This document shows positions 12,006 through 48,246 of a stretch of DNA of 64,000 nucleotides, piece by piece. A program made the position numbers and the translations under genes. The notes under the pieces are model-generated. The model saw only the letters and a program-made list of their open reading frames with translations, made no database searches and was not told the DNA's origin. Origin of the DNA: an uncultured Gemmatimonadaceae bacterium (GTDB lineage: Bacteria; Gemmatimonadota; Gemmatimonadetes; Gemmatimonadales; GWC2-71-9); contig CAYGBV010000013.1 in NCBI GenBank assembly GCA_964348295.1, positions 5,993 through 69,992 of the forward strand. The letters are read 5' to 3'. Numbering within the stretch: the stretch's first letter is position 1; each line of letters starts with the position of its first letter.

Positions 12006-12032
12006 GCGCACTTGGTGGGGAGAAGCGCCGAG

Positions 12033-12051
12033 CCGTTCCCTGTTCCCCGTC
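12033..12051 (-). repeat. GACGGGGAACAGGGAAC motif, inverted partner of 14346-14362
   Basis: 16/17 identity to reverse complement of 14346-14362. Confidence 0.5.
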
Positions 12052-12125
12052 TCTGCTAGACGTCCCCCGCCCCATTCCTTATATACAGATAGGAGCGCGC
12101 TCACTTCTTTCCGGTAGGCGCCATC

Positions 12126-12773
12126 ATGATGCGCGTCGCGGTTCTCGCCTCCGGTGGGGGCACCAATCTCCAGGCATTACTGGACACCTGTCAGGGGTCG
12201 GCCCCGGCCCGGGTCGTCGTGGTGATCAGCAACAAGGCGACGGCGGGAGCGCTGGAGCGGGCCCGCAAGGCGAATGTGGCGACGGAGGTACTCGACGACC
12301 CGAGTGACGGCGCAGGGATCATCGCGCTGCTCCGCTCGTACGACACCGACCTCGTGGTCCTGGCCGGGTACCTCAAGCTGGTTCCCGAGGTAGTGGTGCA
12401 GGCCTACGAGAACCGGATGCTCAACATCCACCCGGCGCTGCTGCCGTCGTTCGGCGGACCGGGGATGTACGGACACCACGTGCACGAGGCGGTGCTCGCC
12501 TCGGGGGCGACGGTCTCCGGCCCCACGGTGCACATCGTGACCGCCGAGTACGACCGCGGCCCGATCGTGGCGCAGTGGCCGGTGCCGGTCGCCGCAGACG
12601 ACACACCGGAATCGCTGGCCGCCCGCGTGCTCAAAGTGGAGCACCAACTCCTCCCGGCCGTGGTGCTGGCGGCGGCGCGGGCGGGGCGCGTGGTGCGGTT
12701 GGTCGGCAAGGAAGGCGCGTTTGATGGAAGCACGAACCCGGGCCCCGTGGCCGACGTTCTCACGTCGTCATGA
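12126..12773 (+). CDS. purN: Phosphoribosylglycinamide formyltransferase
   Basis: AVLASGGGTNLQA, LNIHPALLPSFGG, SGPTVHIV. Confidence 0.95.
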   Translation: MMRVAVLASGGGTNLQALLDTCQGSAPARVVVVISNKATAGALERARKANVATEVLDDPSDGAGIIALLRSYDTDLVVLAGYLKLVPEVVVQAYENRMLNIHPALLPSFGGPGMYGHHVHEAVLASGATVSGPTVHIVTAEYDRGPIVAQWPVPVAADDTPESLAARVLKVEHQLLPAVVLAAARAGRVVRLVGKEGAFDGSTNPGPVADVLTSS

Positions 12774-32171: not shown

Positions 32172-32960
32172 GTGCCCGATAACGATACCCCGGACCGCAG
32201 GCAGGGCGATCGCCGCCGCGGGAGCGAGCAGCGCGCGGGAGGGTCGCGGCGCTCCGGCCACGACCGGCGCGCCAAGGAGCCTCCGAGCCCCGAGGCGTCC
32301 ACCCGCAGCGGCAAGGAGCGCAGAACCCGCGTGCGGCGCGCCGGTCGGCGGCGACGGCGCTGGGACCGGCGCGTCGGGGAGCACCACGACAACCCTGCGG
32401 TCTACTCGCGGGACGAGATCACACGCATCCGCAAGTTGCTGGTGAGCACTCGCGTGCCGTTCACCTGCCCCCGATGCGACGGCGCGTTACACCAGGGCGA
32501 CCCCATCATCGGCAACGGGTGCACCCTGCGGCCCGTGCGCTGTGAGGCCTGCCATCGCAGTACCACCATACCGGACTACGTTGTCGTGCGCGCACTGGTG
32601 GTTGACGACGACGAGCCGGTCCGTGAGGGTCTGGCGACCATCCTGAGGGGAGCCGGCCATGAGGCGGTGGCCACGGCAGACGGGAGCGCGGGCGTTCGCG
32701 CCTGCGGGACGGACTCGCCCGACGTTGTCTTCGTGGACATCGCGTCGGTGCGAGCCGAGGTGGAAGTCATCGCGCAGGCCCGCAAGGCGTTCCCCGATGT
32801 CAAGGTGATCGCCGTGGGAGGCCGGCAGCGCCGCGGAGCCGGTGATCCGCTGGCCATCGCGGGCACGCTGGGCGTGCAGGCAACACTGCGGCGGCCATTC
32901 ACGCCGCACGACGTGCTGCGGGCGGTGGATGTGGCGCTCGGCCTGGTACGGGCCGATTAG
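32172..32960 (+). CDS. Atypical response regulator: Arg-rich N-terminus, zinc ribbon, receiver domain
   Basis: DRR repeats; CPRC...CEAC; [10 protein letters not shown]...DVVFVDI...LRRPF. Confidence 0.65.
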
Positions 32961-34699
32961 CGTTGCCTGCGGGCCTCGGCCGCTTCCCGTGCGGCGACCT
33001 TAGCCCACGTATCCCTGAGCGTCACCGTCCGGTTGAACACCGGGGCGCCGGGCTGCGAGTCCTCGTCTGCGATGAAGTAGCCCTGCCGCTCGAACTGGTA
33101 GCGGGTGCCGGGCGGGTCATCCGCCACGCTGGGCTCGATGCGGCTCTCGTTCAGCACGACGAGTGACTCGGGGTTGAGGTAGTCGGTGAACTGCGTCCCC
33201 TCCTCCACATCGTCCGGGTTCGCGGTGACGAAGAGGCGGTCGTATAGCCGCACCTCGCAGGGGAGCGAATGCGCGGCCGAGACCCAGTGGATGGTGCCCT
33301 TCACCTTGCGGCCGTCGGGGGTGCCGCTCTTGGTCTCGGGGTCGTAACTGCAGTGCAGCTCGGTGATCTCGCCCGTCTTGGGGTCCTTGATGACCTCCTC
33401 GCACTTGACGATGTACCCATAGCGCAGCCGCACCTCGCGTCCCGGCGCGAGACGGAAGAACTGCTTGGGCGGGTCCTCCATGAAGTCGTCCCGCTCGATA
33501 TAGATCTCGCGTGAGAACGGGAGCGGGCGGGAGCCCTCCCTGGGGATGTCCCTGGGATAGTACGGGGCGTCCAGCTGCTCGACCTGCCCCTCGGGATAGT
33601 TGGTGATCACCACCTTTAGCGGCCGCAGCACGCACAACACCCGGGGGACCTTGGGGTTGAGGTCGTCGCGAATCGCCCACTCGAGCTTCTCGATGTCCAC
33701 CCGGCTGTCGGTCTTGGCCACGCCCACTAGATCGCAGAACTTACGGATCGCATCCGGCGTCACGCCGCGGCGCCTGAGTCCGGCGATGGCCGGCATGCGG
33801 GGATCGTCCCAGCCGCCCACGTACCCCTCCTCCACCAGCCGGATCAGCCGGCGCTTGCTGAGCACCGTGTAGTCCAGGTTGAGCCGGGCGAACTCGGTTT
33901 GCGCGGTGCGCGGCCGCTCGATCCCGACCGCGTCCAGCACCCACTCGTACAGCTCGTTGTTGTCCTTGAACTCCAGCGTACAGAGCGAGTGCGTGATGTC
34001 CTCGATCGCGTCGGAGAGGCAGTGCGTGTAGTCGTACAGCGGGTAGAGGCACCACTCGTCACCGCGGCGGTAGTGGCTGGCGTGCCGGATGCGGTACAGC
34101 ACGGGGTCGCGCATCAGCATGTTGGGATGCGCCATGTCGATCTTGCCCCGCAGCACGTGCTCCCCGTCTGCGAACTCCCCGGCCTTCATGCGGCGGAACA
34201 GGTCGAGGTTCTCTTCGGGGGAGCGGTCGCGGTAGGGGCTGGGCTTGCCCGGCTCGGTCACCGTGCCGCGGTACTGCCTGATCTCCTCCTCGGACAGGCT
34301 GTCCACGTAGGCGAGGCCCTTCTCGATCAGCAGCTCGGCCCACTCATACAGCTGCTCGAAGTAGTCCGAGGCGTGGTACATGCGGTCGTCCCAATCGTAT
34401 CCCAGCCACGCGACGTCCCGCTTGATGGCCTCGACGTACTTCATGTCCTCCGTTTCGGGGTTGGTGTCGTCGAACCGGAGGTTGCAGGTGCCGCCGTGCT
34501 CCAGCGCCAACCCGAAGTTGAGGCAGCACGACTTGGCGTGTCCGATGTGGAGATAGCCGTTCGGCTCGGGCGGAAACCGGGTCGCGACCCGGCCGCCGTA
34601 TTTGCCCGTGCGCCCGTCCTCCTCGACCATCGACCGAATGAAGTCGAGGCCGGGCTTGCGGAGGCCTTCGCTCTTCTCGGGTGCTCGCTCTTCTGGCAC
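32957..34699 (-). CDS. glnS: Glutamine--tRNA ligase (no YqeY tail)
   Basis: [63 protein letters not shown]. Confidence 0.95.
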
Positions 34700-34822: not shown

Positions 34823-37800
34823 TCAGGCCTGCCGCACGCCATAGAAGGCCGCATACAGCGTCGGCACGACCACCATCGTGAGCAACGTCGCGACGCCCAG
34901 GCCGAACATGATCGTGACCGCCATCGAGACGAAGAACGCGTCCGGTACCAGCGGCAGCATGCCGAGGATCGTGGTAGCCGCCGCCATCCCCACCGGCCGG
35001 AGTCGGCTCACCGCTGCCTGCAGGATCGCGCTGAAGTCGGACTGGTCGGTGCCGCGCTGCACGTTGATCTCGTCGATCAACACGATCGCGTTCTTGATGA
35101 GCATCCCGGAGAGGCTCATGAAGCCGAGCAACGCCATGAACCCGAACGGCTGGGCGGTGACGAGTAGACCCAACGTGACGCCGATGAGTGCGAGGGGCAC
35201 CACGAGCCAGATGACGGCGGTCTGCTTCAGCGAGTTGAACAGGGCGACGGTGATCAGCACCATCAGCAGCACGAAGACGGGGAACGACGCGGCCAGGGAC
35301 GCCTGCGCCCTGCGACTATTCCGGTACTCGCCCCACCACTCCAGCGTGTAGCCCTCGGGCAGCTCGATCGCCTCGACCGCCGGTCGCACCTTGGCGAGCA
35401 TAGGGGGCGCCTCGCCCACCCGTGGGTCGGCCAGCACCGTGATCGCGCGCTTGCGGTTCATGCGAATGACGATCTCGTCCTCGAAGGTGGTCTCGAAGTC
35501 CGACACGACCTGGCGCAGCGGGATCGCTCGACCGGCGGCGGGGCTGTAGATCTGGATGTTGCCGATGCTGCTGACGTCGGCGCGCTCCGCCTCCGGGGCG
35601 CGCGCTATGATCGGCAGCAGCTCGTCGCGCTCCCGGTACACGCCAAACGACGCGCCCTCGAAGCCCGCGAGCAGCGCCGTGGCGATATCGGTGCGGGTGA
35701 TGCCCGCGAGGTTGGCCTGCTCCTCTGCGACGACCGGACGCACGACCTTGACCCGCTCGCGCCAGTCGGTCCGTACCCCGTAGAGATTGGGCTCCGCCCG
35801 GAATATCGCCTCCGCCTGCGCGGCGAGGCCGCGGAGCACGTCCGGATCCGGCCCGAAGAACCGCGCCTGGATCTTGCCGGGATCACCGGGGCCCAGAATG
35901 AACTTCCGCGTCTGCACCATGGCTCCCGGGTACGCCTCCTCGAGATGCTCCTGAAACTGCAGCATCATCCGGTCGATGAGGCGGTAGTCGTCCACGTCCA
36001 CCAGGAACTGCGCGTACGCAGGGTTCTCCTTCTCCGGTGTGTAGGTCAGGAGGAAGCGCATCGCACCGTTCCCGACAACGGCGGAGACTGTCGTGACGCC
36101 CTCCTGGTCCATGATCCACTGCTCGATCTCGGCCACGTCGCGCTCGGTGCTTCCGATCTGGCTCCCCTGCGGCAGCCAGTAGTCAATCATGAACTGCGGC
36201 CGCGTGGAGTTCGGGAAGAAACTCTGCTCGACCCTGCCGAACCCGACCAGCGCGATGACGAATACGCCCACCACCACGGCCATCGTGATTGCCCGGCGTC
36301 GAATGGCGCCGCCCAGCAGACCGCGGAACTTCGTGTAGAACGCGCCGCCGTACGGGTCGGAGGCCGCCTCCCCCGGCTTCGGCAGCTTCGGCTTGAGCAC
36401 CATGATCCCGAGGAGCGGTGTCACGGTCACGGCGGTCACCCAGCTCAGCAGCAGCGAGATCAGGATCACGGTGTACAGCGAGCGCGTGTACTCGCCGGTG
36501 GCGTCCTGCGACGTACCGATCGCCGCGAACGCGAGAATCGCGATCACCGTTGCGCCCAGGAGCGGCCAGGCAGTCTGCTGCACGGTTTCGACCGCCGCCC
36601 GGACCTTCTCGACTCCCTGCTGCATCTTCACCAGCATCCCGTCCACAACCACGATGGCGTTGTCCACCAGCATGCCCAGGGCGATGATCAGCGCGCCGAG
36701 GGAGATGCGCTCCAGCACCACTCCCATGCGCGGCATGATGATGAACGAGCCCGCAATGGTGAGGAACAGGATGAACCCGATCAGCAGGCCGGATCTAAGG
36801 CCCATGAACAAGAGGAGCACCACCACAACGATGGCGACGGCCTGCAGCAGGCTGACCAGAAAGCCGTTGATGGCCGTGGTCACCGCCGCCGACTGGAGGG
36901 AGATGATGCCGACCTGCATCCCCAACGGGATCTGGGGCAGAAGCTCCCGGAATCGGGCGGCAACTCCCTCGCCCATGGTGACCACGTTGCCGTCGGGCAC
37001 GGTGGAGATGCCGAGGCCGACGGCCGAGCTCCCGTTGTACCGGATCAACTGCTTGGGCGGGTCCCGGTAACCCCGGCGGATGGCGGCGATGTCCCGCAGG
37101 TAGATCTGCGCGCCACCGGGCTGGCCAGCAATCAGCAACGATCCGAAGTCGTCAACGGAGTCGAACAGCCCTGTCGGGTCGATGGTGATGAAGTCGGGAC
37201 CCACTTCGACGTGGCCCGCGTACGCGGCGAGGTTCCTGGAGCGCAATCCCTCGGCGACCGCTGCCGTGGAGATGCCGAGCTGCGACATCCGGTCCCGATC
37301 CAGCTCGACGTAGACGACCTCAGGCTGCACGCCGAAGAAATCGATCTTCGCAACGTCCTGTACGAGCAGCAGCTCCCGCCGCAGCAGCTTGGCCACATCA
37401 TACAGCTCGGCGTAGCTGTACCCCTCTCCGTACAGCGCGAGGAACACCCCGTAGACGTCACCGAAGTCGTCGTTGACGATGGAAGGTCCGGCACCAGGCG
37501 GCAGATCACGCTGGGCATCGTTCACCTTGCGCCTGAGCTCGTCCCATACCTGCGGGAGCGTCTCTTTGTCGTACCGGTCCTTGATCGTGGCGGTGACGAT
37601 CGACAGCCCGCGCGTGGACCGCGACTCGACCTCGAGGAGCTGCTTGAGCTTCTGCACCGCGATCTCGATTACGTCGGAGACTTCTTCCTCGACCTCCGTC
37701 GCGGAAGCACCCGGATAGGGAGTGATGATCAGGGCGTCCTTGATCGTGAACTCCGGGTCCTCGAGCCGGCCCATGCCGGTGTACGAGATGATCCCGCCGA

Positions 37801-37867
37801 CGACCAGAACGACAGTGAGAACGAGCGTGGTAACCCGGTTCTCGATGCAGAATTGGGTGATCTTCAT
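34823..37867 (-). CDS. RND efflux transporter permease (AcrB/D/F family)
   Basis: 1014 aa, two TM blocks, LGMLVDNAIVV, IKNAIVLID, SRLRPVGM. Confidence 0.95.
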   Translation of the reverse strand: MKITQFCIENRVTTLVLTVVLVVGGIISYTGMGRLEDPEFTIKDALIITPYPGASATEVEEEVSDVIEIAVQKLKQLLEVESRSTRGLSIVTATIKDRYDKETLPQVWDELRRKVNDAQRDLPPGAGPSIVNDDFGDVYGVFLALYGEGYSYAELYDVAKLLRRELLLVQDVAKIDFFGVQPEVVYVELDRDRMSQLGISTAAVAEGLRSRNLAAYAGHVEVGPDFITIDPTGLFDSVDDFGSLLIAGQPGGAQIYLRDIAAIRRGYRDPPKQLIRYNGSSAVGLGISTVPDGNVVTMGEGVAARFRELLPQIPLGMQVGIISLQSAAVTTAINGFLVSLLQAVAIVVVVLLLFMGLRSGLLIGFILFLTIAGSFIIMPRMGVVLERISLGALIIALGMLVDNAIVVVDGMLVKMQQGVEKVRAAVETVQQTAWPLLGATVIAILAFAAIGTSQDATGEYTRSLYTVILISLLLSWVTAVTVTPLLGIMVLKPKLPKPGEAASDPYGGAFYTKFRGLLGGAIRRRAITMAVVVGVFVIALVGFGRVEQSFFPNSTRPQFMIDYWLPQGSQIGSTERDVAEIEQWIMDQEGVTTVSAVVGNGAMRFLLTYTPEKENPAYAQFLVDVDDYRLIDRMMLQFQEHLEEAYPGAMVQTRKFILGPGDPGKIQARFFGPDPDVLRGLAAQAEAIFRAEPNLYGVRTDWRERVKVVRPVVAEEQANLAGITRTDIATALLAGFEGASFGVYRERDELLPIIARAPEAERADVSSIGNIQIYSPAAGRAIPLRQVVSDFETTFEDEIVIRMNRKRAITVLADPRVGEAPPMLAKVRPAVEAIELPEGYTLEWWGEYRNSRRAQASLAASFPVFVLLMVLITVALFNSLKQTAVIWLVVPLALIGVTLGLLVTAQPFGFMALLGFMSLSGMLIKNAIVLIDEINVQRGTDQSDFSAILQAAVSRLRPVGMAAATTILGMLPLVPDAFFVSMAVTIMFGLGVATLLTMVVVPTLYAAFYGVRQA

Positions 37868-37870
37868 GGG

Positions 37871-38974
37871 CTACGACCTGCCCTCTGGGCCCTCGAGCCG
37901 CCGCACCGGATCGCCTTCCCGCAGGTTCGCCACGCCGGTCACGGCGACCAGATCGCCGTCGGCGAGGCCTCGCACCACCTCGACCTCGGCGCCGAACATC
38001 GCACCGATCTCGACCGGGGCGCGGGAAACCGTCATGGCCACCGGATCCACCTTCCACACGGACGTCTGCCCGTCGTCCGCCGCGAACACGGCGTTCGCCG
38101 GCAGGCGCTGTACGGTCGTTCCCGGCTGACCCAAGCGGCGCACGATCATGCGCGCCGTCATGCCCGGGACCAAAGCAATGTCGCTGGGCGGCTCGAAGCG
38201 GAACGTCACCTCGAAGGTGCGCGTCACCGGGTCGGCCTGTGTCGCGACCTCCGTGAGCCAGGCGGGGAACCGTCGGTCGGGAAACGTGGATACGGTACCT
38301 TCTGCATCTATCCTCAGAGGAGTGCGCGTCGATTCCACCGCCTGCCGGGCCACCAAAGCGTCGCCCTCCGGCACGGCGATCACTATCTCCAGATTGCGAT
38401 CGTCGTTGAGCAGCAGCACCGTCTCCTTGGCCTGCACGTTCTGGAAGGCATCCACGAAGGTGCGCGCCACACGGCCGGCGAACGGTGCCACGAGCCGGGT
38501 ATCATCGACCGCCTTCTGCGACGTGCGCAACCGCGCCTCCGCCACTTCGAACTGCGCCTGCCTGAGCTGGAGCTCCTGCAGCGTTACGGCGTCGGCGGCG
38601 TACAGCTCCTGATAGCGCCGATAGTCCGCACGGGCCGCTTCGAGGCTGGCGGCGTCCGCATCGCGTTGCGCCTCGTAGTTGCGCGCATCGAGCCGCGCTA
38701 GCAGCTGGCCCCGTCTCACCCATTGTCCCTGCACGACCGGCATCGCGACGATGAGTCCGGGGACCTCGAAGGCCAGCTCGGCCCGCTCCGCCGCTTCGAC
38801 CGTCCCCGGGTATTCCCGTACGCCGGAGACACCGCCGAAGCCGATTTCGATCATCTTGACCGGACGGGCGACCGCCTGCTCCGGCGGCGGCTCACCGCCG
38901 CAGCCGGGAACGAACGCGCCGAACGTGGCGAGGAGCACAAGCGTGCGCAACCTCGAGCAGCGTTTCAAATCCAT
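37871..38974 (-). CDS. RND periplasmic adaptor (MFP), lipoprotein
   Basis: Lipobox VPGC, hairpin helices, LVAPFAGRV, DPVTRTFEV. Confidence 0.92.
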   Translation of the reverse strand: MDLKRCSRLRTLVLLATFGAFVPGCGGEPPPEQAVARPVKMIEIGFGGVSGVREYPGTVEAAERAELAFEVPGLIVAMPVVQGQWVRRGQLLARLDARNYEAQRDADAASLEAARADYRRYQELYAADAVTLQELQLRQAQFEVAEARLRTSQKAVDDTRLVAPFAGRVARTFVDAFQNVQAKETVLLLNDDRNLEIVIAVPEGDALVARQAVESTRTPLRIDAEGTVSTFPDRRFPAWLTEVATQADPVTRTFEVTFRFEPPSDIALVPGMTARMIVRRLGQPGTTVQRLPANAVFAADDGQTSVWKVDPVAMTVSRAPVEIGAMFGAEVEVVRGLADGDLVAVTGVANLREGDPVRRLEGPEGRS

Positions 38975-39010
38975 GGCTTCAATCCGTGGTCCTGTAGTCT
39001 GTGCACTGTG

Positions 39011-41431
39011 CTACTCCATGCCGCGCTCGCGCAGGTAGTCTCCCAGGCGCTGAATGAACGCCTCGCGCGAGGCCTCGTCGAGAAACAGGTCGATCTGGCC
39101 GGCCGCCCGCTGCACGGCCATGAAGTCAGTGATGAAATCGTACAGCGTATTGGCCGCGTCGAGCTCGGCAACGAGCGCCGTGTTCTGGGCGTCGAGCAGG
39201 CTGAGGATGCCGGTTACGCCCCCCGCGTAGGCAGTCCGCACGAGCTCGTAGTTACCCTGTGCTGCGGTAGCGGCCTCCCGCGCCAACTCCAGGCGCACCC
39301 GGGACGACAGCAGGCGCTGCAGCTCGTCGCGCATCGCCTCCTCAACCCGCTGCGCCTGCGAGGTGCGCTGATACTCGAGGCTGAACAGGCTCTGTTGGGC
39401 CCGCTCCTTTGCCGCGGTGCGCGAGCCGCTACCGAACAGCAAGTAGCGGGCACTCAGCGAAATCGACCAGCGCCAGGGGTCGGCCTCCCCTTCAGGCACC
39501 AGGCCGGGAGGCAGACCACCGCCCGAGAAGTCCGAGCCGGCGCCCCCCTCCAGCAACCGGTTCGAGAGACGCGCATCGAGAAAGAACTCAGGCAGCCAGA
39601 AGGACCGGTTGGCGGCCGTCACCGCGCGCTCCTGGCCCCCGATCAGCGCATCAAGCGCCCGCAGCTCCGGCGACGTTACCAGCGCTTCGGCAATCATGAA
39701 GTCCTGGAAGCCGTCGAAGCGCTGCGGGTCGTCCAGCAGCCGCGTCAGGGCGTCCTCCGCCCAGCGGATCACCGGATCTTCGAGCTCATCCTCGGGGGTG
39801 GCGACATCCTCGCCGAGTGCTCGGTGCAGCAGGCGGTTGAGCCGTATCTCGGCAACTGCCCGCGCGGCCGCCGCGCCGACCACCCCCTGGCGGTCCTTGG
39901 AGACCTGCGCCTGCCAGCGCAGCACCTCCCCCGGAGTCGCCGCTCCCGTCTGCCGCCGCACATCGGCCAGGTCCAGGTTCGTGCGCGTGAACGCGAGGTT
40001 CTCCCGCCGGATCTGCTCGGTCGTCTTGCGGCGTAGCACGGTCAGATAGGCGTCGGCCGCCTCGAATGACACGTCGAGCCGCAGCGACGCGTAGTCCTCC
40101 TCCCGCGCACGCTGCAGCGACTGCTGAATAGTCCGATCCGCCCACGCGCGGTCGGCATACACGACCTGCGAAAGCCCCACCGAGCCCAGCAGCTGCCTCT
40201 GGGGCAGGACCCCGAGGCTGCGGGCCGCCCGGTCTTCGTCGATGATCGTGCCCGAGAATGCCAGATCGAGCTGCGGCAGGAGGCGTGACGTCGCGGTCTT
40301 CACGTCCTGCGCGGCCGCCTGCACAGCGCGCTCGAACGACGCGAGATCCTGATTCTGCGCCAGCGCCTCCCGCACGATCGAGTCGAGCGACTGCGGCTCG
40401 GGTTGCACCCCGGGCCGCTCCTCGATGAGTCGCGCGTCGCTCAGCATTGTCCACGACGGATACACCCCGATGGCGCGCGCGGTCTGCATATTGACGATCA
40501 AGCGCTCCTGCGGCACGAACGTCACGCGCAACTGCCCCGGTGCATCGCCCCGGAGGATCTGTTCTACGGTGAGCGCCGTCAGCCGAGCGAGCTGGAACGT
40601 GAAGGAGTCCGGGCGCCGCGCCAGCAGGATGCCCTGGCGAACCTCGGCCTCCCCGAACCAGGAGAGGCTCGGCAGCCCGAGCTCAATCAGTCCATCTGCC
40701 AGCTGCTCGAACGCCGCGCTCGAGACCCGCGACAGTGGCAGCACGTACACTGCGTCCGCCCCAGCGACCTCGATTGCGTCGAGCGCGAGTTGAACATCGT
40801 CGCCCACCGGAACGACCACCGCCTCGGCTCCGGCTTGCGCCACCAGCTGCTCGACGCGGCTGTCCAGGGCCGGCATCTCGGCGACCGCAGATGCACTCAC
40901 GAGCACGGCGAGGCGCTGAAAGGCGACCACCTCGGCCAGCGTGGCGAGATCCCGGTTCTCGGGTCGCGTGAGGTACACGAAGTTGGACACCCCGGAGGCA
41001 GCGCCCTGTCGGGGGATGTCCTGTAGCGAGGGGTCGAGCACGAAGGGGGCGACGACCGGCTTGGCGAGTCGCGGATGGTCGGCAGCCACCTGTGCACCCA
41101 TGGTACCGACGACCACTACCACGTCCACCCGATCCATGAGCTGATCGAGCGCCGCACGGATGCCGGCCTGCGTATGATCGCCGGCCAACCTCACATCCCC
41201 CCCGATGCGCACCTCGAACCGGTTCTCGAGAAGCACCGCCGTCTCCCGCTCGATCTGGTCCAACAGCTCGCCGAAGCGGAGAAACGGGCCGTCGGTCAGG
41301 ATGCCGATCGTCACCGGTGTCCGCTCTTGGGCGGCGGCCGTCGGGGCGACCGAGCCAATCCCGAGTGCAGCCAGCACCGCAAGCAGGAGACGGGTAGCCA
41401 ACGGATGTTCAGCGGACAGGCGAACTCCCAT
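39011..41431 (-). CDS. TolC-family outer membrane protein fused to an N-terminal ABC substrate-binding-like domain
   Basis: Signal peptide; about 330 aa periplasmic-binding-like region ending LIVNMQTARAIGV; OEP repeats (ALAQNQDL, SRLLPQLDL, SFWLPEF, YAGGVTGILSLLDAQ). Start 41431 or 41461, not 42325. Confidence 0.8.
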   Translation of the reverse strand: MGVRLSAEHPLATRLLLAVLAALGIGSVAPTAAAQERTPVTIGILTDGPFLRFGELLDQIERETAVLLENRFEVRIGGDVRLAGDHTQAGIRAALDQLMDRVDVVVVVGTMGAQVAADHPRLAKPVVAPFVLDPSLQDIPRQGAASGVSNFVYLTRPENRDLATLAEVVAFQRLAVLVSASAVAEMPALDSRVEQLVAQAGAEAVVVPVGDDVQLALDAIEVAGADAVYVLPLSRVSSAAFEQLADGLIELGLPSLSWFGEAEVRQGILLARRPDSFTFQLARLTALTVEQILRGDAPGQLRVTFVPQERLIVNMQTARAIGVYPSWTMLSDARLIEERPGVQPEPQSLDSIVREALAQNQDLASFERAVQAAAQDVKTATSRLLPQLDLAFSGTIIDEDRAARSLGVLPQRQLLGSVGLSQVVYADRAWADRTIQQSLQRAREEDYASLRLDVSFEAADAYLTVLRRKTTEQIRRENLAFTRTNLDLADVRRQTGAATPGEVLRWQAQVSKDRQGVVGAAAARAVAEIRLNRLLHRALGEDVATPEDELEDPVIRWAEDALTRLLDDPQRFDGFQDFMIAEALVTSPELRALDALIGGQERAVTAANRSFWLPEFFLDARLSNRLLEGGAGSDFSGGGLPPGLVPEGEADPWRWSISLSARYLLFGSGSRTAAKERAQQSLFSLEYQRTSQAQRVEEAMRDELQRLLSSRVRLELAREAATAAQGNYELVRTAYAGGVTGILSLLDAQNTALVAELDAANTLYDFITDFMAVQRAAGQIDLFLDEASREAFIQRLGDYLRERGME

Positions 41432-41677
41432 GAGGCCTCTGGGTAAGTGTCCGTTACTCATACGGCTTCTGTCATTTGGGCTGAAGTACGGCCCGTGACG
41501 GCGAAGAGCTATACCCTCTTGGTGGTATGCGGGAGCGAAGGGGGCAGCATACACCGGGCGGACCCGTCTCGTCAACGCGCCGCGATTCGAGATCGGCATC
41601 AGTGGCGCCGCGGCGCAGGTAGACAAACGGCGCGCATCCGTCGATCTTTGGGCGGCAAACTGCAAAGGAGCCTCGGC

Positions 41678-42250
41678 ATGTATTCCGTTCGCGTTCCAGT
41701 TCTGGCGGCCGTCGCCGTCATCACGCTCACGACCACCGCGCTGGCACAGGAGGCCAAGTTCGTTGGCATCTCCGGCGGAGCTACGCTGGGCGACCTCAAT
41801 GGCGGCGTGACCAACACCGACAACCGCTGGGGCGGTACCGCCGGGGTGTTCTTCGGCTACCGCAGGTGGTACACGATCGGCGTGCTCGAGGCCAACTGGG
41901 TACAGAAGGGTGGCGGGGACACCCGCATCGACTACATCGAGGTTCCGTTCCTCGTTGGCGGCGGGACCACGACGGACGCCGGGATCCTGTTCCGGCTCTA
42001 CACGGGGCTGGGAATCGCCTTCCCCATCGGCTGTAACTCCACCTCGACCTCCGAGCTCCAGAACTGCGACCTGAAGAAGAGCCCCGAGTGGGCGTGGCCC
42101 ATCGGCCTGCTCGTCGGGCGCGAAATCGGCGGCCCTCGCTTCGCGGCCATCGACGCGCGCTACTCGATCGGCATCTCGGACGCGTTCGATAACGCGATAT
42201 CCTCGAATCGCTCCTGGCAGTTCCGCCTGTACGTGGGTCAGCGACTCTGA
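41678..42250 (+). CDS. Small outer membrane beta-barrel protein
   Basis: Signal peptide (ALA-QE), alternating Gly/aromatic strands, DARYSIG, C-terminal strand QFRLYVGQRL. Confidence 0.7.
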   Translation: MYSVRVPVLAAVAVITLTTTALAQEAKFVGISGGATLGDLNGGVTNTDNRWGGTAGVFFGYRRWYTIGVLEANWVQKGGGDTRIDYIEVPFLVGGGTTTDAGILFRLYTGLGIAFPIGCNSTSTSELQNCDLKKSPEWAWPIGLLVGREIGGPRFAAIDARYSIGISDAFDNAISSNRSWQFRLYVGQRL

Positions 42251-42282
42251 TCCGGCGCCGCGCAGCGGGCGCGCCAACCAGA

Positions 42283-42311
42283 AAGGGCGAGCGCACGGCG
42301 CGCTCGCCCTT
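42283..42311. terminator. Hairpin between convergent genes, likely bidirectional terminator
   Basis: AAGGGCGAGCGC-ACGGC-GCGCTCGCCCTT, perfect 12-bp stem. Confidence 0.7.
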
Positions 42312-42337
42312 GGCACATCCGGCACCGCGGTGGGCCG

Positions 42338-43738
42338 CTAGCCTCTCAGCCCGGCCACGAACTTGTCGAGCAGCGTGCTGGGGAACGTCCCGCCCGACTC
42401 GAGTATGTCGCGATACCGCGTGAGCGCGTCGGCCACCTCGTAGAAGTCGCGCGGCACCCGCTCGGCGCGCCCTCCCTTCCCTTGCCTCGCCTGCTCGGCC
42501 GAGGTGCGCTGCAGCAGGTCCTCCAACTCCTCGGTGTCGCGGCCCTTGATCATCGCCAGCGCCGCGCCGGCCAGGAGCAGGTGGGGCAGCGCCGAGCCGT
42601 CGGGCAACCGGAACTCCACGGTGGCGGGCGTTACCACCCGACCGGTCCCGTCGGTGGCCACCACCGGCAGGCGAATCAGTGCCTGGCGGTCGTAGTCGCC
42701 CCACACGATGGTGCTGGGTGCCTCCTTGGCCTGGCGGATACGGACGAAGGAGCCCTCTACCCGGTTGCCGAACGCCATGAGGGCACCACCCATCTGCACC
42801 AGCCCACCGATGAGCCACCGGGCGCCATCGGTAAGCGTGCCGTCCTCGTGCTTGACGGGCAGCACCTCGCCGTCCTTGACGGGCGCCAGGTGGAAGTGGA
42901 GTCCGTTCCCAGCGTGGCCCTCGAGCATCATCGGGCCCGTGGCGCAGCGCATGCCCTTCCGGTGCGCCAGGTTCCGCAGCACCCATTGGGTGAGCAGAAT
43001 CCCGTCGGCGGCTTCGGGCAGCGGCGCCAGGGAGAGCTCGATCTCGTGCTGCTCCCAGATGACGCCTCCCGCCTCGCTCGCCTCGATGTAGCCCACCTCG
43101 CTGTGTCCGTACTTGACCGGCACCGCGAGGTCTGCCAGCAGCGCGAGCGCCTTGCGCCGCAACCCTTCTCCGAACACGAATGGGGAGCTGGCGTGGTAGC
43201 CCCGGTCGTCGGCGCCGTAGATGTCCGACTCGTCGCGTCGCTTGCCGAGGAAGTACTCGACCTCACCGAGGGCCCAGAGCTCGACGCCCGCGGTCTCCTT
43301 GAGCTGCCGCACGGCGCGGCGCAGGATCGTGTCGGGCGAGGCCGCCAACGGCTTTCCGTCCCGGTCCGCGTGCCCGCACATCAGCACCAGCGTCGGGAGC
43401 GACGCGAACGGATCGAGGAACGCGGTCCCCACGCGGGGCCGCAGCACGATGTCGGACCGGTCGGGCGGAATCCCGGCGCGCGGGAACAGGCTCGAGCCGT
43501 CGGCCCGCTCGCCGCCCTCGATGATGTCCTCGAGCTGCTGCGCGCTGCGCGGCACGAAATCCAGCGTCTTGAGCCAGCCGTCGCCGCCCACGTGCATCAG
43601 GCTCACGACTTGAATGCCGCGGGCCCGCACCAGCTCCACCAGATCGGCCGCGGTCCACGCGGCGCGTGGCTTGTCCAGCTCGTCCTCCAGGCTCATTCCC
43701 CGCGGCACTGGCGTGCGCGGCCGTGTTTCTTCACTCAT
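42338..43738 (-). CDS. Glutamine synthetase-family protein (Bacteroidota-like GS I variant)
   Basis: DGSSLF, GEVEYF, HSEVG, QHEIE, GNGLHFH, EAP, DRQALIRLP, VEFRLPD; ATG 43738 overlaps gatD stop. Confidence 0.88.
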   Translation of the reverse strand: MSEETRPRTPVPRGMSLEDELDKPRAAWTAADLVELVRARGIQVVSLMHVGGDGWLKTLDFVPRSAQQLEDIIEGGERADGSSLFPRAGIPPDRSDIVLRPRVGTAFLDPFASLPTLVLMCGHADRDGKPLAASPDTILRRAVRQLKETAGVELWALGEVEYFLGKRRDESDIYGADDRGYHASSPFVFGEGLRRKALALLADLAVPVKYGHSEVGYIEASEAGGVIWEQHEIELSLAPLPEAADGILLTQWVLRNLAHRKGMRCATGPMMLEGHAGNGLHFHLAPVKDGEVLPVKHEDGTLTDGARWLIGGLVQMGGALMAFGNRVEGSFVRIRQAKEAPSTIVWGDYDRQALIRLPVVATDGTGRVVTPATVEFRLPDGSALPHLLLAGAALAMIKGRDTEELEDLLQRTSAEQARQGKGGRAERVPRDFYEVADALTRYRDILESGGTFPSTLLDKFVAGLRG

Positions 43739-45129
43739 CGCCACACCTTCTCCAGGAACTCCTGAATCTCCGGCACCCCACCCTGGAACACCAGGTACCC
43801 GTCGTGCGGCTCGCGTGCCGTGGTCTCGCCGGCGACGGGCGTCATCATGAGCTGCTTCACCGCCTCCGGATCGTCGGGGTGTGCCCCCAGCGCCCACCCC
43901 AGCTTAACGAACGCCACCTCGGGCAGCATGTTGGCGAGCGGGATGACGCCGAGCTCCAGGATCTCGCGCCCCGTCTCGTACACCTGCATCTGCACGAAGC
44001 CCCACAGGGTCTGGAGCGTCATGTACATGTGCACGCCGGCGGCGTGCGCCCGCCCCAGCGCCGGATAGATAGTACGATTGACGTGCCCCAGGCCCGTGCC
44101 CGCGATCACAATTCCCTTGTAGCCCTTCTCCACCAACGCATCCACTACGTCGGCGTGCATGCCCGGGTAGTAGTACAGCATCGTGACCCGCTCGTCGTAC
44201 ACCGCCTGGACCGTGACGTCGCAGTCGTTGCGGCGCCGCTGCCAGTCGTCCTTGAGCGGGGTGATCGTGCCCTTCTCCACCATGGCGAGGGGAACGTCCC
44301 CCAGCGTGCGGAACGTGCTGCGGTAGGAGCTGTGCATCTTGCGCACCCGCGTGCCGCGGTGCAGCAGGTTGTAGCGGTCCGAGGTGGGGCCGAACATGCA
44401 CACCATCACCTCGGCGATCGGCCCGCGCGCCGCCGTCCACGTGGCATTGATGAGGTTCTGCGCCGCGTCGGACGACGGCCGGTCGGAGGAGCGCTGCGAG
44501 CCCACCATGACGACGGGCACCGGCGGCCGCTGCACCATGAACGACAGCGCCGCCGCCGTGTGGTGCATCGTGTCGGTGCCGTGGCCGATCACCACGCCGT
44601 CCCAGCCGTCGCGAATCGCCTCGCCCACTTTCTCGGCGAGGATGAGATACTGCTCGGGCCCCATGTTCTCGCTGAACACGCCGAACAGCTTCTCCGTCTC
44701 GAGGTTGCAGATGTCGGCCAGCTCGGGCACCGAGCCGTAGAGCTCCCCGGGGCTGAACGCCGGGATCACCGCGCCCGTGCGGTAGTCGAGCCGCGACGCG
44801 ATGGTGCCGCCCGTGCCGAACAGCTTCACGCGCGGCTTCACCGGATCGGTGGGGAACTCCTTCTCGGGGATCTTGTAGCGCGCCTCGCGGTAGCCGGTCT
44901 CTTCCATCACGAGGATGGTGTCGAACCTGAGCCCCACGTTGTAGCCGCTCCCCAGCTTGAGCACCAGGTGCGCGTCGTCGCTGGTCTCCGAGCGCGGCAG
45001 GATCAGCCCCTCGAAGTCGCCGCGGGTGGTGCGGGCCTTCACCTCGCTCCACACCTTCACTCCGAACCGCTTCATCACCTCGAGGGTGGGTCCGCGGTAT
45101 CCCTTGTATTGGTCCTTGCCGCCGCTCAT
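43735..45129 (-). CDS. gatD: Glu-tRNA(Gln) amidotransferase subunit D (archaeal-type, asparaginase fold)
   Basis: GatD-specific N-domain (YKGYRG...EGLILPRSETSDDAHLVLKLGSGYNVG), TGGTIASRLDYRTGAV, SENM, HGTDTMH, GSQRSSDRPSSDA, HRGTRVRKMHSS, AFVKLGWALG. Confidence 0.92.
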   Translation of the reverse strand: MSGGKDQYKGYRGPTLEVMKRFGVKVWSEVKARTTRGDFEGLILPRSETSDDAHLVLKLGSGYNVGLRFDTILVMEETGYREARYKIPEKEFPTDPVKPRVKLFGTGGTIASRLDYRTGAVIPAFSPGELYGSVPELADICNLETEKLFGVFSENMGPEQYLILAEKVGEAIRDGWDGVVIGHGTDTMHHTAAALSFMVQRPPVPVVMVGSQRSSDRPSSDAAQNLINATWTAARGPIAEVMVCMFGPTSDRYNLLHRGTRVRKMHSSYRSTFRTLGDVPLAMVEKGTITPLKDDWQRRRNDCDVTVQAVYDERVTMLYYYPGMHADVVDALVEKGYKGIVIAGTGLGHVNRTIYPALGRAHAAGVHMYMTLQTLWGFVQMQVYETGREILELGVIPLANMLPEVAFVKLGWALGAHPDDPEAVKQLMMTPVAGETTAREPHDGYLVFQGGVPEIQEFLEKVWR

Positions 45130-47213
45130 GCCACCGTCTCCGGCACGGCGTCCTCGAGCGCCTGTGTCAGCCGCCGCCGTACGTCGGTCGGGTCGAGCCG
45201 GCCCAGGAACCCGGGCATGACCGCACCCATCGCCCAGCGCAGCACACCGTCGCGTGACGCGGTCGTGAGCGACTGTGCCTCGACCACCACGTCGGTCAGG
45301 CGGCGCGTGAGCTCGTCCGCGTCGTGGGCACGGCCCCGGTAGCGCGCCAGCAGCTCGTGTGCCGCGACCTCGGGTCGCTCGATGAGCGCATCCAGCATGC
45401 GGTCCAGCGCTTCTACCCGGATCTCACCCTTCTCGATGGCAAGCACCATGGGCGCGAGGCGCTCGGGCGCGGGCAGCGCCGCCGCATCCCGCGTGAGCCG
45501 CCCCTGCCGGCGGTGGTGCGGCAGCCGCTTCTGGAACGCGTTGGCGAGCCGGCGCGCCACGTCACCGGCCGCGGGCGCGAGCGCGTCGAACAGATCGGCC
45601 CACTCCGCCCGGGCGAGTCGCCGCGCCATTCGGAGTTCTAGCCCCAGCTTCTCGTAGCGCGCCTCACGCGCCCATGGCGTCTCGGCGATCTGCTCGCGCA
45701 CCTCGGCCACCAGCGCGTCGGCAATGGGCAAGGGCGGCGTGTCGGTATCGGGGTACATGCGGTCCGGCCCCGGCAAAATGCGCTCGAACCCGTTGGTACC
45801 GTCGTCGAACGCCTGGCGCGTCTCCGAGGGCACGCCGACCAGGGCGTCCTGGCACCGGATCAGCACCTCGCGCGCCGCGGTGGCCGCGTCCTCTTCCGTG
45901 CCCCACACGACGACGATCGCGTCACCCGTCTCGGCCTTGAGCTGCTTGCGCAACTCGCGCCACTCGCGCGGGTCGAGCCCGTAGTCCTTGATGTCGGAGT
46001 GGATCATGAACGGGCGGTGCTCCGGACACGCGATCACGCGCACCCGGTCGGCGATCTCGCGGGCGAAGGTCACGCCGGGCTGGGTGCGGTGATTGAGCAA
46101 ACCATCGAAGCCGGGGAGCCGCACCGCAGCGATCGTCTCCCCCCGCTCCAGCGCGTCGCGCATCGGTTGAAAGTCGGAGTGAGCGAGCGCGGTGCCAGCG
46201 TCCACCACCTGGTCGCTCACCTCCCACGGCAGCCCACCCTCCGGAGTGGTGAGCATGTCGTCCCCCACCTCGCGCCGCACCAGCTCGGCCTTCACCCTGA
46301 GCAGGTTGAGCTGGCGGAACGCCTCGGTGTGGACCAGGAGCGGCAAGTGCTTGTGGTTGTCCACCCCCTTGAGCTCCACTCGCCGCCCGCCCGCCACCGA
46401 GACGTTGGTGTCCTGCCGTGCCGCTCCCGGGCCGCGCCGCACCTTCCCCGTGGCCTGCGCGATGGCCGCCAGCAGGCGCCCTCCCGCACGGACCTCCCAG
46501 GGAGTCAGCAGGTCGGGCTCGGTGACCGTCTCGGTAAGCGGCATCCCCAGGCGGTCGGTCTTGAACGTGATGCGGTGGCCGATGTCGGTCACCTCACGGC
46601 AGGAGTCCTCCTCCAGCGAGAGCTGCCGGATCCTGAGCTCCCGGTCCACGCCTAGCTCCGGCACCCGGAACGGCACCGTGCCCGTGAGCCCCACCATGGC
46701 CGTGCGCTGGAAGCCCGTGGGGATCGAGCCGTCCAGGTACTGCTTGCGCATCACGTGTAGCTCGGACACCAGGTTCAGATTGCAGAGCTGCGCGATCTCA
46801 ACCGCGATCCGCACCGCCTCTTCGTCGAGCTCGAACGGCGGCGTGTCGTCCATCTCGTAGGTGCAGACCGTGCCGCGCTCCAGCCGGTACACGATCTCCT
46901 TCTTGGTCTTGAACTCCATGAGCGCGGTGCCGTCGTACTCGCCCAACTCGCTCAAGGTGGGGCGCATGTGGCGCAGTACCTCGGCGTCGTACACGGTCAC
47001 CCGCCGGCCCGCCGGACAGCGGCAGAACAGCTTGGACGTGGTGCGGAGCTGCTGGTGGACCTCGACGCCGGACATGAATCCCACGGCGTCGTAATCGCCG
47101 GGCGTCATGTCGGCCAGGTCCTTGTCGCGGAAGTCCAGCGCCGGCTCCCGGCGGGGGTTCAGATCCGCCGGGGGGCGCGGGCCGGACTGGTTGGCGTTGT
47201 CGTCGTCGCTCAT
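45126..47213 (-). CDS. gatE: Glu-tRNA(Gln) amidotransferase subunit E (archaeal-type)
   Basis: GVEVHQQL..KLFC, RPTLSELGEYD, MRK...DGS..TGFQRT, LEED, DRLGMPL.E, KVRRG.G..RQD.NVS..GG.RVELKGV, AspRS-like insertion, GVPSETR, LPGPDRMYPDTDTPP, tail WAMGAVM; start trimmed to ATG 47213. Confidence 0.92.
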   Translation of the reverse strand: MSDDDNANQSGPRPPADLNPRREPALDFRDKDLADMTPGDYDAVGFMSGVEVHQQLRTTSKLFCRCPAGRRVTVYDAEVLRHMRPTLSELGEYDGTALMEFKTKKEIVYRLERGTVCTYEMDDTPPFELDEEAVRIAVEIAQLCNLNLVSELHVMRKQYLDGSIPTGFQRTAMVGLTGTVPFRVPELGVDRELRIRQLSLEEDSCREVTDIGHRITFKTDRLGMPLTETVTEPDLLTPWEVRAGGRLLAAIAQATGKVRRGPGAARQDTNVSVAGGRRVELKGVDNHKHLPLLVHTEAFRQLNLLRVKAELVRREVGDDMLTTPEGGLPWEVSDQVVDAGTALAHSDFQPMRDALERGETIAAVRLPGFDGLLNHRTQPGVTFAREIADRVRVIACPEHRPFMIHSDIKDYGLDPREWRELRKQLKAETGDAIVVVWGTEEDAATAAREVLIRCQDALVGVPSETRQAFDDGTNGFERILPGPDRMYPDTDTPPLPIADALVAEVREQIAETPWAREARYEKLGLELRMARRLARAEWADLFDALAPAAGDVARRLANAFQKRLPHHRRQGRLTRDAAALPAPERLAPMVLAIEKGEIRVEALDRMLDALIERPEVAAHELLARYRGRAHDADELTRRLTDVVVEAQSLTTASRDGVLRWAMGAVMPGFLGRLDPTDVRRRLTQALEDAVPETVA

Positions 47214-47331
47214 GGGCCGAGAAAGATATCGTCGAGACGGTGTAGTTGCCTGCCAGCAGGCCCTTGCGGCCATGGCGTGCCCTATCTAGGCTTATCCCGA
47301 CAACAATCATCCCCATTGATCCGAAACAGGC

Positions 47332-48246
47332 ATGTCGATCCGACCCGTCAAGCGAGTCATCCAGTCGCAGCCGACCCTGGAGGGCGCCGGTGTCCGGCTG
47401 CGGCGCGCCTTCGGGTTCGGCGACACGTCCGACTACGACCCGTTTCTGCTGCTGGACGACTTCCGCAACGAGAATCCCGACGACTACCTCGCGGGCTTTC
47501 CGTGGCACCCGCATCGCGGCATCGAGACCATCACGTACGTGCTCGCGGGCACGGTGGAGCACGGCGACAGCCTGGGCAACAGCGGCGCGCTGGGCGCCGG
47601 TGACGTGCAGTGGATGACGGCCGGCCGTGGCATCCTGCACCAGGAGATGCCGCAGGGCGATCCCAAGGGGCGGATGCACGGCTTCCAGCTCTGGGCCAAC
47701 CTTCCCTCGTCGCTCAAGATGACCGAGCCGCGCTACCAGGACGTCTCCTCGGCCGACATTCCTGAGGTCACCGACGACGACGGCACGCACGTGCGGGTCA
47801 TCTGCGGCAGCTTCTGGGGCAAGACCGGTCCGGTAGACGGCATCGCGGCCGACCCCCGTTACCTCGACGTGTGGGTCCCGCCCGGCACGCGCAAGACGCT
47901 GCCCGTCGAGACCTCACGCCACGCATTCGCCTACGTGTTCGACGGCGCGGGCAGCTTCCGTGACGCATCGCAGCCGCGCGACGTGCGCACCGACCAGGTG
48001 GGCGAGCCGGTCACAGCAGAGTCGGCAGCAGCAAAGGAAGAAGAAGTAGCGAACCGCTCGCTCGTGCTGTTCGACCGCGGCGACGAGGTCACGGTCCAGG
48101 CCGGTGAGCAGGGCATCCGTTTCCTGCTCGTCTCGGGCAAGCCCATCGAGGAGCCCGTGGCGTGGTACGGCCCCATCGTGATGAATACGCAGCAGGAGCT
48201 GCAGCAGGCGTACGCGGAGCTGCGGGAGGGGACGTTCATCCGGTAG
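47332..48246 (+). CDS. Pirin family protein
   Basis: DPFLLLDDF, FPWHPHRGIETIT, WMTAGRGILHQE, YGPIVMNT. Confidence 0.93.
   Translation: MSIRPVKRVIQSQPTLEGAGVRLRRAFGFGDTSDYDPFLLLDDFRNENPDDYLAGFPWHPHRGIETITYVLAGTVEHGDSLGNSGALGAGDVQWMTAGRGILHQEMPQGDPKGRMHGFQLWANLPSSLKMTEPRYQDVSSADIPEVTDDDGTHVRVICGSFWGKTGPVDGIAADPRYLDVWVPPGTRKTLPVETSRHAFAYVFDGAGSFRDASQPRDVRTDQVGEPVTAESAAAKEEEVANRSLVLFDRGDEVTVQAGEQGIRFLLVSGKPIEEPVAWYGPIVMNTQQELQQAYAELREGTFIR

Follow-up and report, generated by a model that had tools for sequence, protein, structure and literature searches.

A 64,000-nucleotide window of contig C13 (CAYGBV010000013.1, positions 5,993 to 69,992) from the genome of an uncultured Gemmatimonadaceae bacterium (assembly GCA_964348295.1; 3.4 Mb, 92% complete, 68% GC) carries a three-gene operon in which an archaeal-type glutamyl-tRNA(Gln) amidotransferase, GatDE, is joined to a gene of the glutamine synthetase (GS) family, called here the GS-like gene. 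The host belongs to the Gemmatimonadota and is a soil-type bacterium, and its nearest relatives in public collections are metagenome-assembled genomes (MAGs) from the same phylum. The operon, its conservation and the part that the GS-like protein may play in supplying glutamine to translation are the subject of this text. Its features are as follows:

45126..47213, minus strand: gatE, archaeal-type Glu-tRNA(Gln) amidotransferase kinase/transamidase subunit (NF003107, TIGR00134, Pfam)
43735..45129, minus strand: gatD, asparaginase-family glutaminase subunit, 464 amino acids (TIGR02153, Pfam, motifs)
42338..43738, minus strand: GS-like gene, 466 amino acids, predicted deep-branching type-I glutamine synthetase paralogue (Pfam, alignment, model)
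42283..42311, minus strand: 12-bp GC-rich hairpin 3' of the GS-like stop codon, probable operon terminator (sequence, fold energy)

The operon and its products

GatE scores 479 bits on NF003107 (cut-off 456) and 415 bits on TIGR00134 (cut-off 320), and contains the Pfam domains GatB_N, GAD and GatB_Yqey. Its reading frame stays open up to an ATG at 47273, but the ATG at 47213 is the likelier start, since relatives match from residue 1 of the 695-residue form. GatD reaches 483 bits on TIGR02153 (cut-off 324), has the Pfam domains GatD_N, Asparaginase and Asparaginase_C, and carries the motifs GTGGTIAS and HGTDT. It is the most conserved of the three operon proteins, with 78-93% identity across phyla, and the ratio of nonsynonymous to synonymous substitution rates (dN/dS) of its gene is 0.10-0.12. 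The GS-like protein matches Pfam Gln-synt_C at 127 bits and Gln-synt_N at 32.6 bits, the latter just below the cut-off of 33.4. The gatE, gatD and GS-family assignments had been made in a preliminary description of the locus, and they hold on curated models and Pfam; the two strings that it quoted, DRQALIR and SFVRIRQAKEAP, are both found in the GS-like translation.

Both gene junctions are ATGA overlaps. The gatD stop TGA and the GS-like ATG overlap at 43735-43738, where the junction reads ...gtg tgg cgATGAgtgaagaa, and gatE and gatD overlap in the same way at 45126-45129. The hairpin, whose arms AAGGGCGAGCGC and GCGCUCGCCCUU enclose the loop GCCGU, starts 27 nt past the GS-like stop and is followed by UCUGGUU; the local fold of this region has an energy of -42.3 kcal/mol (z = -2.85). 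The three-gene unit with its overlapping gatD/GS-like codons and terminal 12-bp hairpin, as first described, is thus borne out by the sequence, the open reading frames (ORFs) and the fold. A strict consensus terminator scanner did not call the hairpin at 42283-42311, because the T-run is weak. No promoter was found by a sigma-70 consensus scan of the operon region, and an Rfam search of positions 42000-47700 returned no glutamine riboswitch, T-box or other element. A divergent pirin gene lies upstream. A recent foreign island was considered and rejected: the GC content of the operon (0.70) matches that of the window (0.64-0.73).

A canonical GlnA is encoded elsewhere in the genome, on contig C5, and scores 541.6 bits on the GlnA equivalog TIGR00653. 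The GS-like gene is therefore a second GS-family copy and not the genome's sole housekeeping GS, a possibility that had been raised at the outset and is rejected.

The association of gatD with the GS-like gene

GatD, GatE, glutaminyl-tRNA synthetase (GlnRS) and AsnA were placed by tblastn on 81 species loci of the GS-like gene, 71 of them informative. Immediately before the GS-like gene lies gatD in 28 loci, asnA in 26 and some other gene in 17, the flank being too short in the remaining 10. The gatD-adjacent loci span three phyla (Gemmatimonadota, Eisenbacteria and Terriglobia), so that the GS gene is not, as the preliminary description had thought conceivable, rarely adjacent to gatDE elsewhere. 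The translational coupling is itself conserved, since the GatD match in many of these loci runs exactly up to the GS start. In a sample of 301 Gemmatimonadota genomes from 127 genera, 19 genomes (12 genera) have GatE and 8 have the GS-like gene; in 7 of these 8, gatDE is adjacent to it (Fisher p 9e-9 by genome, 0.0025 by genus). The adjacency of gatD and the GS-like gene is far beyond chance. Purifying selection on the GS-like gene is indicated by its dN/dS of 0.13-0.20 against congeners.

Could the adjacency nevertheless be without functional meaning, the slot being a recombination hot spot beside an ordinary second GS gene? The slot does take varied cassettes, the GS-like gene also occurs alone, and in this genus an efflux operon is inserted right after it. 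But the partners are non-random: gatD or asnA precedes the GS-like gene in 54 of 71 loci, in several phyla, and GatDE or AsnA is present somewhere in 26 of 28 genomes with the GS-like gene (GlnRS in 25 of the 28), whereas in 20 control genomes of the same family neither GatE, nor AsnA, nor the GS-like gene was found in any. This explanation is extremely improbable.

The 17 loci with another upstream gene show no conserved neighbours beyond close relatives. Two complete chromosomes depart from the usual arrangement. In CP070792 (genome G319, locus L016, 8412-11398), the GS-like gene is coupled to a complete gatD (85% identity), with a lipoate-protein ligase and an M20 peptidase upstream, but gatE was found nowhere in the genome; gatB and asnA are also absent from it. 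In CP070722 (genome G320, locus L029), gatD and the GS-like gene have beside them only a C-terminal piece of gatE (residues 424-692); about 240 kb away, the same chromosome carries another gatE of full length.

Sequence and structure of the GS-like protein

Residue conservation was judged in an 18-member alignment of the GS-like family (61-88% identity), with the residue roles and numbering that we take to apply to S. typhimurium GS. The metal ligands Glu129, Glu131, Glu212, Glu220, His269 and Glu357 correspond to E159, E161, E214, E232, H281 and E375 and are invariant (18/18), the first two lying in the motif GEVEY. Equally invariant (18/18) are the ATP/phosphate and glutamate-carboxylate residues His271, Arg321, Arg339, Arg344 and Arg359 (H283, R333, R351, R356 and R377). 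The protein had initially been said to keep most of the metal and ATP residues; in fact it keeps all of them, and has an alanine in place of Asn264. At the ammonium site, the Asp50'/Ser53' loop reads ADGSS, with D80 and S82 invariant and S83 the family consensus, and Tyr179 is the invariant Y181. The flap residue Glu327 is E339 in the sequence KEAP, invariant in the 18 members. The catalytic residues align with those of S. typhimurium GS and of the structures of the alpha subgroup of type-I GS (GSI-alpha). About 10 extra residues are inserted between the equivalents of Glu212 and Glu220.

The features that mark the adenylylated GSI-beta enzymes were looked for and not found. No tyrosine stands at the position aligned with the adenylylation site Tyr397 (...SAEQARQGKGGRAERVP...), and the GSI-beta-specific insertion is absent: alignments with GSI-beta break across it, whereas GSI-alpha aligns continuously. 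In a profile search of the PDB, true GSI structures score about 150 bits, as against 52-58 bits for glutamate-methylamine ligase and PuuA-like ligases. The curated ligase models likewise stay far below their cut-offs, GGputSyn at 83.7 against 650 bits and gln_synth_III at 82.8 against 469.6. The AlphaFold model of the protein has a predicted local distance difference test (pLDDT) score of 82 and a predicted template modelling (pTM) score of 0.85, and all 50 of its 50 best Foldseek matches are bona fide GS, with template modelling (TM) scores of 0.70-0.76. Taken together, the residues and the predicted fold suggest that the protein is an active amide ligase of the GS type; the simplest assignment is a glutamine synthetase belonging to a deep clade that is uncharacterised. 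By its sequence, the protein does not look like a polyamine ligase of the GSI-gamma type, which is an unlikely assignment.

Exchange of gatE-gatD with asnA

The gene that most often replaces gatD upstream of the GS-like gene, asnA, encodes aspartate-ammonia ligase, and the upstream copies score about 270-356 bits on TIGR00669. In the Gemmatimonadota, the neighbourhood reads Trbp, Nudix, then either gatE-gatD or asnA, then the GS-like gene and a GGDEF protein. The two cassettes occupy one syntenic slot and have been swapped repeatedly. The tree of the GS-like proteins is largely phylum-coherent, and at least 13 changes of upstream context (gatD, asnA or other) are needed on it. Between loci L023 (gatD) and L025 (asnA), the GS-like proteins have only 29 differences in 442 residues; other close pairs whose upstream genes differ are L013/L014 and L080/L062. 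In the 28 genomes with the GS-like gene, GatE alone is found in 13, AsnA alone in 11, both in 2 and neither in 2 (p = 4e-4); of these last two, one retains a remnant of asnA, and gatD is present without gatE in the other.

Trbp, a 120-amino-acid tRNA-binding-domain protein (CsaA/Trbp111-like by eye), is encoded 2-4.7 kb upstream of the GS-like gene, whichever cassette lies there (loci L012, L022, L023, L025, L028, L033, L036 and L037). A divergent Nudix hydrolase gene adjoins it in 6 of these 8 loci; it has no match in L037 and lies upstream of Trbp in L012.

The exchange bears on how intimate the partnership may be. If the GS-like protein docked on GatD (or AsnA) and handed over its glutamine or ammonia, it would form a fourth, ammonia-capturing part of a transamidosome-like complex, in keeping with the ATGA coupling conserved in many loci and with the persistence of the GatD-GS-like pair without GatE in G319. 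However, no column of the GS-like alignment was found to track the upstream partner (gatD versus asnA), and near-identical GS-like proteins occur in both contexts; in 6 of the 26 loci where asnA is the neighbour, it has the divergent orientation; and many family members have no conserved partner. The lack of a partner-tracking column favours a partner-independent enzymatic role and disfavours an obligate complex. Docking of this kind is very doubtful.

The role of GatDE in these bacteria

GatDE stands in the host alongside both direct charging enzymes, GlnRS and asparaginyl-tRNA synthetase (AsnRS). One AsnB-family gene is present as well; no gatB was found in the genome, i.e., GatCAB is lacking, and no asnA was found either. 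Two tRNA(Gln) genes (UUG and CUG) and one tRNA(Asn) gene were identified in the host genome, all with a U1-A72 pair. On contig C53, outside the window, a tRNA-Glu(CUC) gene at 4834-4907 also has a U1-A72 first pair, with U73, next to a tRNA-Glu(UUC) gene with the usual G1-C72. In bacteria, U1-A72 and U73 typify the acceptor identity of tRNA(Gln) and tRNA(Asn), and their occurrence in this tRNA-Glu(CUC) could bear on which tRNAs an amidotransferase accepts.

Across the genomes compared, where absence calls are affected by the incompleteness of MAGs, gatB is present in 6 of the 19 GatDE genomes (absent from 13) against 19 of 20 controls lacking GatE, and glnS in 16 of the 19 against 2 of the 20. 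This distribution fits a displacement of GatCAB by GatDE in the canonical Glu-tRNA(Gln) role, usually with an acquired GlnRS. Three genomes that are 93-96% complete (G070, G149 and G176) have GatDE with neither GatB nor GlnRS detected, and there GatDE would be the only route to Gln-tRNA. In several GatDE genomes without the GS-like gene (loci L089, L092 and L095), glnS comes immediately after gatE-gatD, and a bacterial gltX lies upstream in divergent orientation; glutamyl-tRNA synthetase (GluRS), GatDE and GlnRS thus form one cluster in some Gemmatimonadota. At L092, the gene at 10911-12236, divergent beside gatE-gatD-glnS, encodes a 441-amino-acid bacterial-type GluRS (Pfam), and the equivalent place in L095 (about 10289-10579) has only a weak tblastn match. 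The adjacency of gltX and glnS in relatives and the three genomes with no other route support the view that bacterial GatDE probably amidates Glu-tRNA(Gln).

The exchange with asnA could also be read in terms of asparagine. GatDE, fuelled by the GS-like enzyme, would then have taken over the conversion of Asp-tRNA(Asn) to Asn-tRNA(Asn), with gatE-gatD interchangeable with asnA and GlnRS covering glutamine. The shared slot behind Trbp and Nudix, the repeated changes of context between close pairs such as L023/L025, and the near-exclusive occurrence of GatE and AsnA would all agree with this, as would the loss of GatCAB in the presence of GlnRS and the U1-A72 pair that tRNA(Asn) shares with tRNA(Gln). 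Yet such a route is unneeded. AsnRS is near-universal (58 of 60 panel genomes), and an AsnB-family enzyme occurs in 52 of the 60, including the host and most GatDE genomes; that GatDE is necessary to make up for a missing AsnRS or missing asparagine synthesis is accordingly rejected. AsnB-family genes are absent from the asnA-carrying Gemmatimonadota G075 and G301-G303. Asparagine supply is therefore explicable by an alternation of AsnA and AsnB without GatDE, which is simpler. The gltX-gatE-gatD-glnS clusters and the three GatDE genomes without GlnRS or GatB point to tRNA(Gln), and archaeal GatDE, to our knowledge, does not amidate Asp-tRNA(Asn). A take-over of asparagine supply is very unlikely.

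A model for the GS-like enzyme

The explanation that best accounts for these data, with a probability of roughly 0.55, takes the GS-like protein to be a genuine, unregulated isozyme of GS, which would turn ammonium into glutamine for use by GatD and GlnRS; its role would be the general one of providing amide nitrogen, and not that of a GatDE-specific subunit. The gene, probably co-transcribed and translationally coupled with gatE-gatD, would yield an enzyme that makes glutamine from glutamate, ammonium and ATP. GatD would hydrolyse this glutamine and feed the ammonia to GatE, which would convert Glu-tRNA(Gln) into Gln-tRNA(Gln), while the nearby GlnRS would use the same glutamine directly. The coupling would be metabolic and regulatory, an amide-nitrogen source being co-expressed with its consumer, and would not require an obligate protein complex. 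The conserved role would be that of the ammonia-capturing half of glutamine and asparagine supply for translation, in lineages that have gained GlnRS and mostly lost GatCAB; the GS-like gene would pair with asnA as well because its product is a general ammonia-capturing partner in amide-amino-acid operons. Operon structure, conservation, selection, residue retention, fold and co-occurrence are the observations on which this model is built, and it is for the substrate ammonium, the product glutamine and the flux to GatD and GlnRS that it goes beyond them.

The preliminary description had proposed a self-contained module leading from glutamate and ammonia through glutamine to Gln-tRNA. The chemistry of that proposal is retained as the best reading, the residues being kept and the nearest sequences and folds being true GS, but not its self-containment. 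The same clade is found with asnA or with other upstream genes in the numbers given above, many GatDE genomes have no GS-like gene, and in the host GlnRS and AsnRS are present and GatCAB is lacking. The alternative offered at the same time, a ligase and amidotransferase pair making another amide product, has less support than the glutamine module.

Several observations weigh against the glutamine-supply model. A dedicated GS is not obviously needed where a canonical GlnA exists. The GS-like gene is missing from 12 of the 19 GatDE genomes in the 301-genome sample, and G319 keeps gatD and the GS-like gene with no gatE anywhere in its complete genome. A supply of glutamine to GatD does not by itself explain the exchange of asnA and gatE-gatD at one slot, which is the least explained observation of all. 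Other points concern the protein itself. On the GlnA model TIGR00653, it scores 146.3 bits against a cut-off of 429.15. Asn264, which we take to be an alpha-amino contact in S. typhimurium GS, is replaced clade-wide by Ala276 in GHAGNG (versus GDNGSG), Gly265 being retained. The flap sequence is QAKEAP instead of PGxEAP, again clade-wide. Because of the low GlnA score, the loss of Asn264 and the altered flap, the substrate of the GS-like protein could differ.

These same three features would be accommodated by a GS-fold ligase acting on a substrate other than ammonia or free L-glutamate, for example a gamma-glutamyl-amine ligase or an ADP-forming enzyme amidating Asp or Glu, with GatD as partner amidohydrolase and some other amide made or recycled. 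The intact gatD-GS-like pair without gatE in a complete chromosome, and the position of GatD as the most conserved of the three proteins, would also fit. On the other hand, the ammonium site (Asp50', Ser53', Tyr179 and Glu327) and Arg321 are invariant, known gamma-glutamyl-amine ligases match far below true GS both on the curated models and in the PDB search, and a genome with gatD only has been seen just once. Another substrate is thus unlikely. A more radical proposal is that the GatD-GS-like and AsnA-GS-like pairs form an unrecognised two-enzyme amide-nitrogen system, in which either GatDE takes over tRNA-dependent asparagine supply, or GatD and the GS-like protein act without GatE (as in G319), e.g., by moving amide nitrogen between asparagine and glutamine. 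The first variant would explain the repeated cassette exchange with asnA; the proposal as a whole seems quite unlikely.

The family and its distant relatives

A database search returns hundreds of close homologues of the GS-like protein. The 120 listed are 64-100% identical to it, and most of the homologues bear the label Gemmatimonadota. When one genome per species is scanned, at least 257 GS-like loci are found, in Gemmatimonadota, Acidobacteriota, Eisenbacteria, Planctomycetota, Verrucomicrobiota and unclassified bacteria. The next relatives in an exhaustive search of representatives, at 37-49% identity, are algal transcripts, GS genes of Bathyarchaeia and one stand-alone bacterial GS. In this wider clade (P0133, P0138 and P0126), GH[AVP]G[ST]G is the common motif in place of GDNGSG, and since all the next relatives carry the GH[AVP]G motif, the loss of Asn264 is old and clade-wide.

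In the Bathyarchaeia, the GS gene lies directly upstream of purE-purC-purM-purS-purL-purQ-guaA, which include the glutamine amidotransferase genes purL/purQ and guaA, a setting to be expected of a real glutamine supplier. In the bacterial representative among the distant relatives, the GS gene stands alone. The algal transcripts P0126 (from the pelagophyte Aureoumbra lagunensis) and P0129 (a cluster including another MMETSP transcript) are 48-49% identical to the bacterial GS clade and closer to the family than any archaeal or other bacterial group outside it, which suggests transfer between bacteria and algae, or contamination. P0126 is labelled "Lengsin" by UniRef, an automatic and unconfirmed label. 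Two giant proteins, P0135 (4424 amino acids, six matched stretches) and P0195 (2757 amino acids), contain several GS-like stretches related to the family. An apparent Rosetta-stone fusion of AsnA and GS (P0125, 790 amino acids) was rejected: its N-terminal 330 residues have no Pfam hit and read like a spurious extension of a high-GC ORF.

Neighbouring genes

Two further features lie downstream of the operon:

32957..34699, minus strand: glnS, true glutaminyl-tRNA synthetase (TIGR00440, 739 bits, cut-off 426)
34823-42325: RND efflux operon of three genes (OEP, 1104 amino acids; HlyD; AcrB), between the GS-like gene and glnS in this genus

The glnS gene is on the same strand as the operon, 3.6 kb downstream of the hairpin and past the OEP-HlyD-AcrB efflux operon. 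A mis-annotated archaeal-type GluRS was considered for it and rejected, the glnS equivalog scoring 739 bits and gltX_arch 328 bits. The top model for this GlnRS is the Deinococcus-type "GlnRS/YqeY fusion" (NF011291), matched at 950 bits over positions 13-568 of 769; the YqeY tail itself is absent. Because glnS directly follows gatD in other genera, the efflux operon appears to have been inserted into an older gatE-gatD-(GS)-glnS arrangement.

Comparison with known systems and significance

The closest known enzymes are the GSI proteins of S. typhimurium (2GLS/1F1H), M. tuberculosis (2BVC) and B. subtilis (4LNF), with which the GS-like protein shares the two-domain fold, a similar length and the key residues, and which are its best matches in sequence and structure. 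In lacking the GSI-beta insertion and Tyr397 it resembles GSI-alpha. It differs from GSI in being only 22-27% identical, in its GHAGNG motif and QAKEAP flap, and in being a second copy inside a gatDE (or asnA) operon. The GatD and GatE of the host pass the equivalog cut-offs and have the same domain architecture as archaeal GatDE (M. thermautotrophicus, P. abyssi). Unlike those organisms, the host is bacterial, possesses GlnRS and AsnRS but no GatCAB, and a GS gene is joined to the operon; we know of no linkage between GS and gatDE in archaea. The Bathyarchaeia and algal members of the clade share the motif, but the archaeal genes lie upstream of purine amidotransferase genes and not of gatDE.

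The GSI-gamma and gamma-glutamyl-amine ligases (PuuA, Streptomyces GlnA2-4, glutamate-methylamine ligase 9QUR) are likewise extra GS-fold paralogues that fall below the GlnA cut-off. GSI-gamma enzymes miss the N-terminal domain and act mostly on polyamines (PMC10799026), whereas the GS-like protein retains the beta-grasp domain and the Asp50' ammonium loop. In Deinococcus, Thermus and Bdellovibrio, GlnRS, AsnRS and GatCAB coexist (PMC4206432, PMC1865053). The host is similar in having the synthetases beside a tRNA-dependent amidotransferase, and its GlnRS is closest to the Deinococcus-type model, but in those bacteria it is GatCAB that serves asparagine, while here the amidotransferase is GatDE, and AsnB or AsnA is available.

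A literature search turned up no account of a GS gene linked to GatDE, of GatDE operons in bacteria, or of their horizontal transfer. The GS paralogue and the GatDE operon are each of a known kind; their conserved combination is new. In reviews, GatDE figures as a signature enzyme of archaea, and additional GS-like paralogues are regarded as polyamine ligases. The bacterial operon described here ties GatDE firmly to an intact-looking GS from an uncharacterised clade, and a large GS clade, present in at least 257 species genomes, is flagged for characterisation. The ties between the GS-like protein, GatDE or AsnA, and GlnRS, with GatCAB usually lost, offer a testable picture of how glutamine and asparagine supply is rewired when bacteria leave the GatCAB pathway. 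Should the exchange of asnA and gatE-gatD prove to reflect functional equivalence, the view of what GatDE does in bacteria would change.

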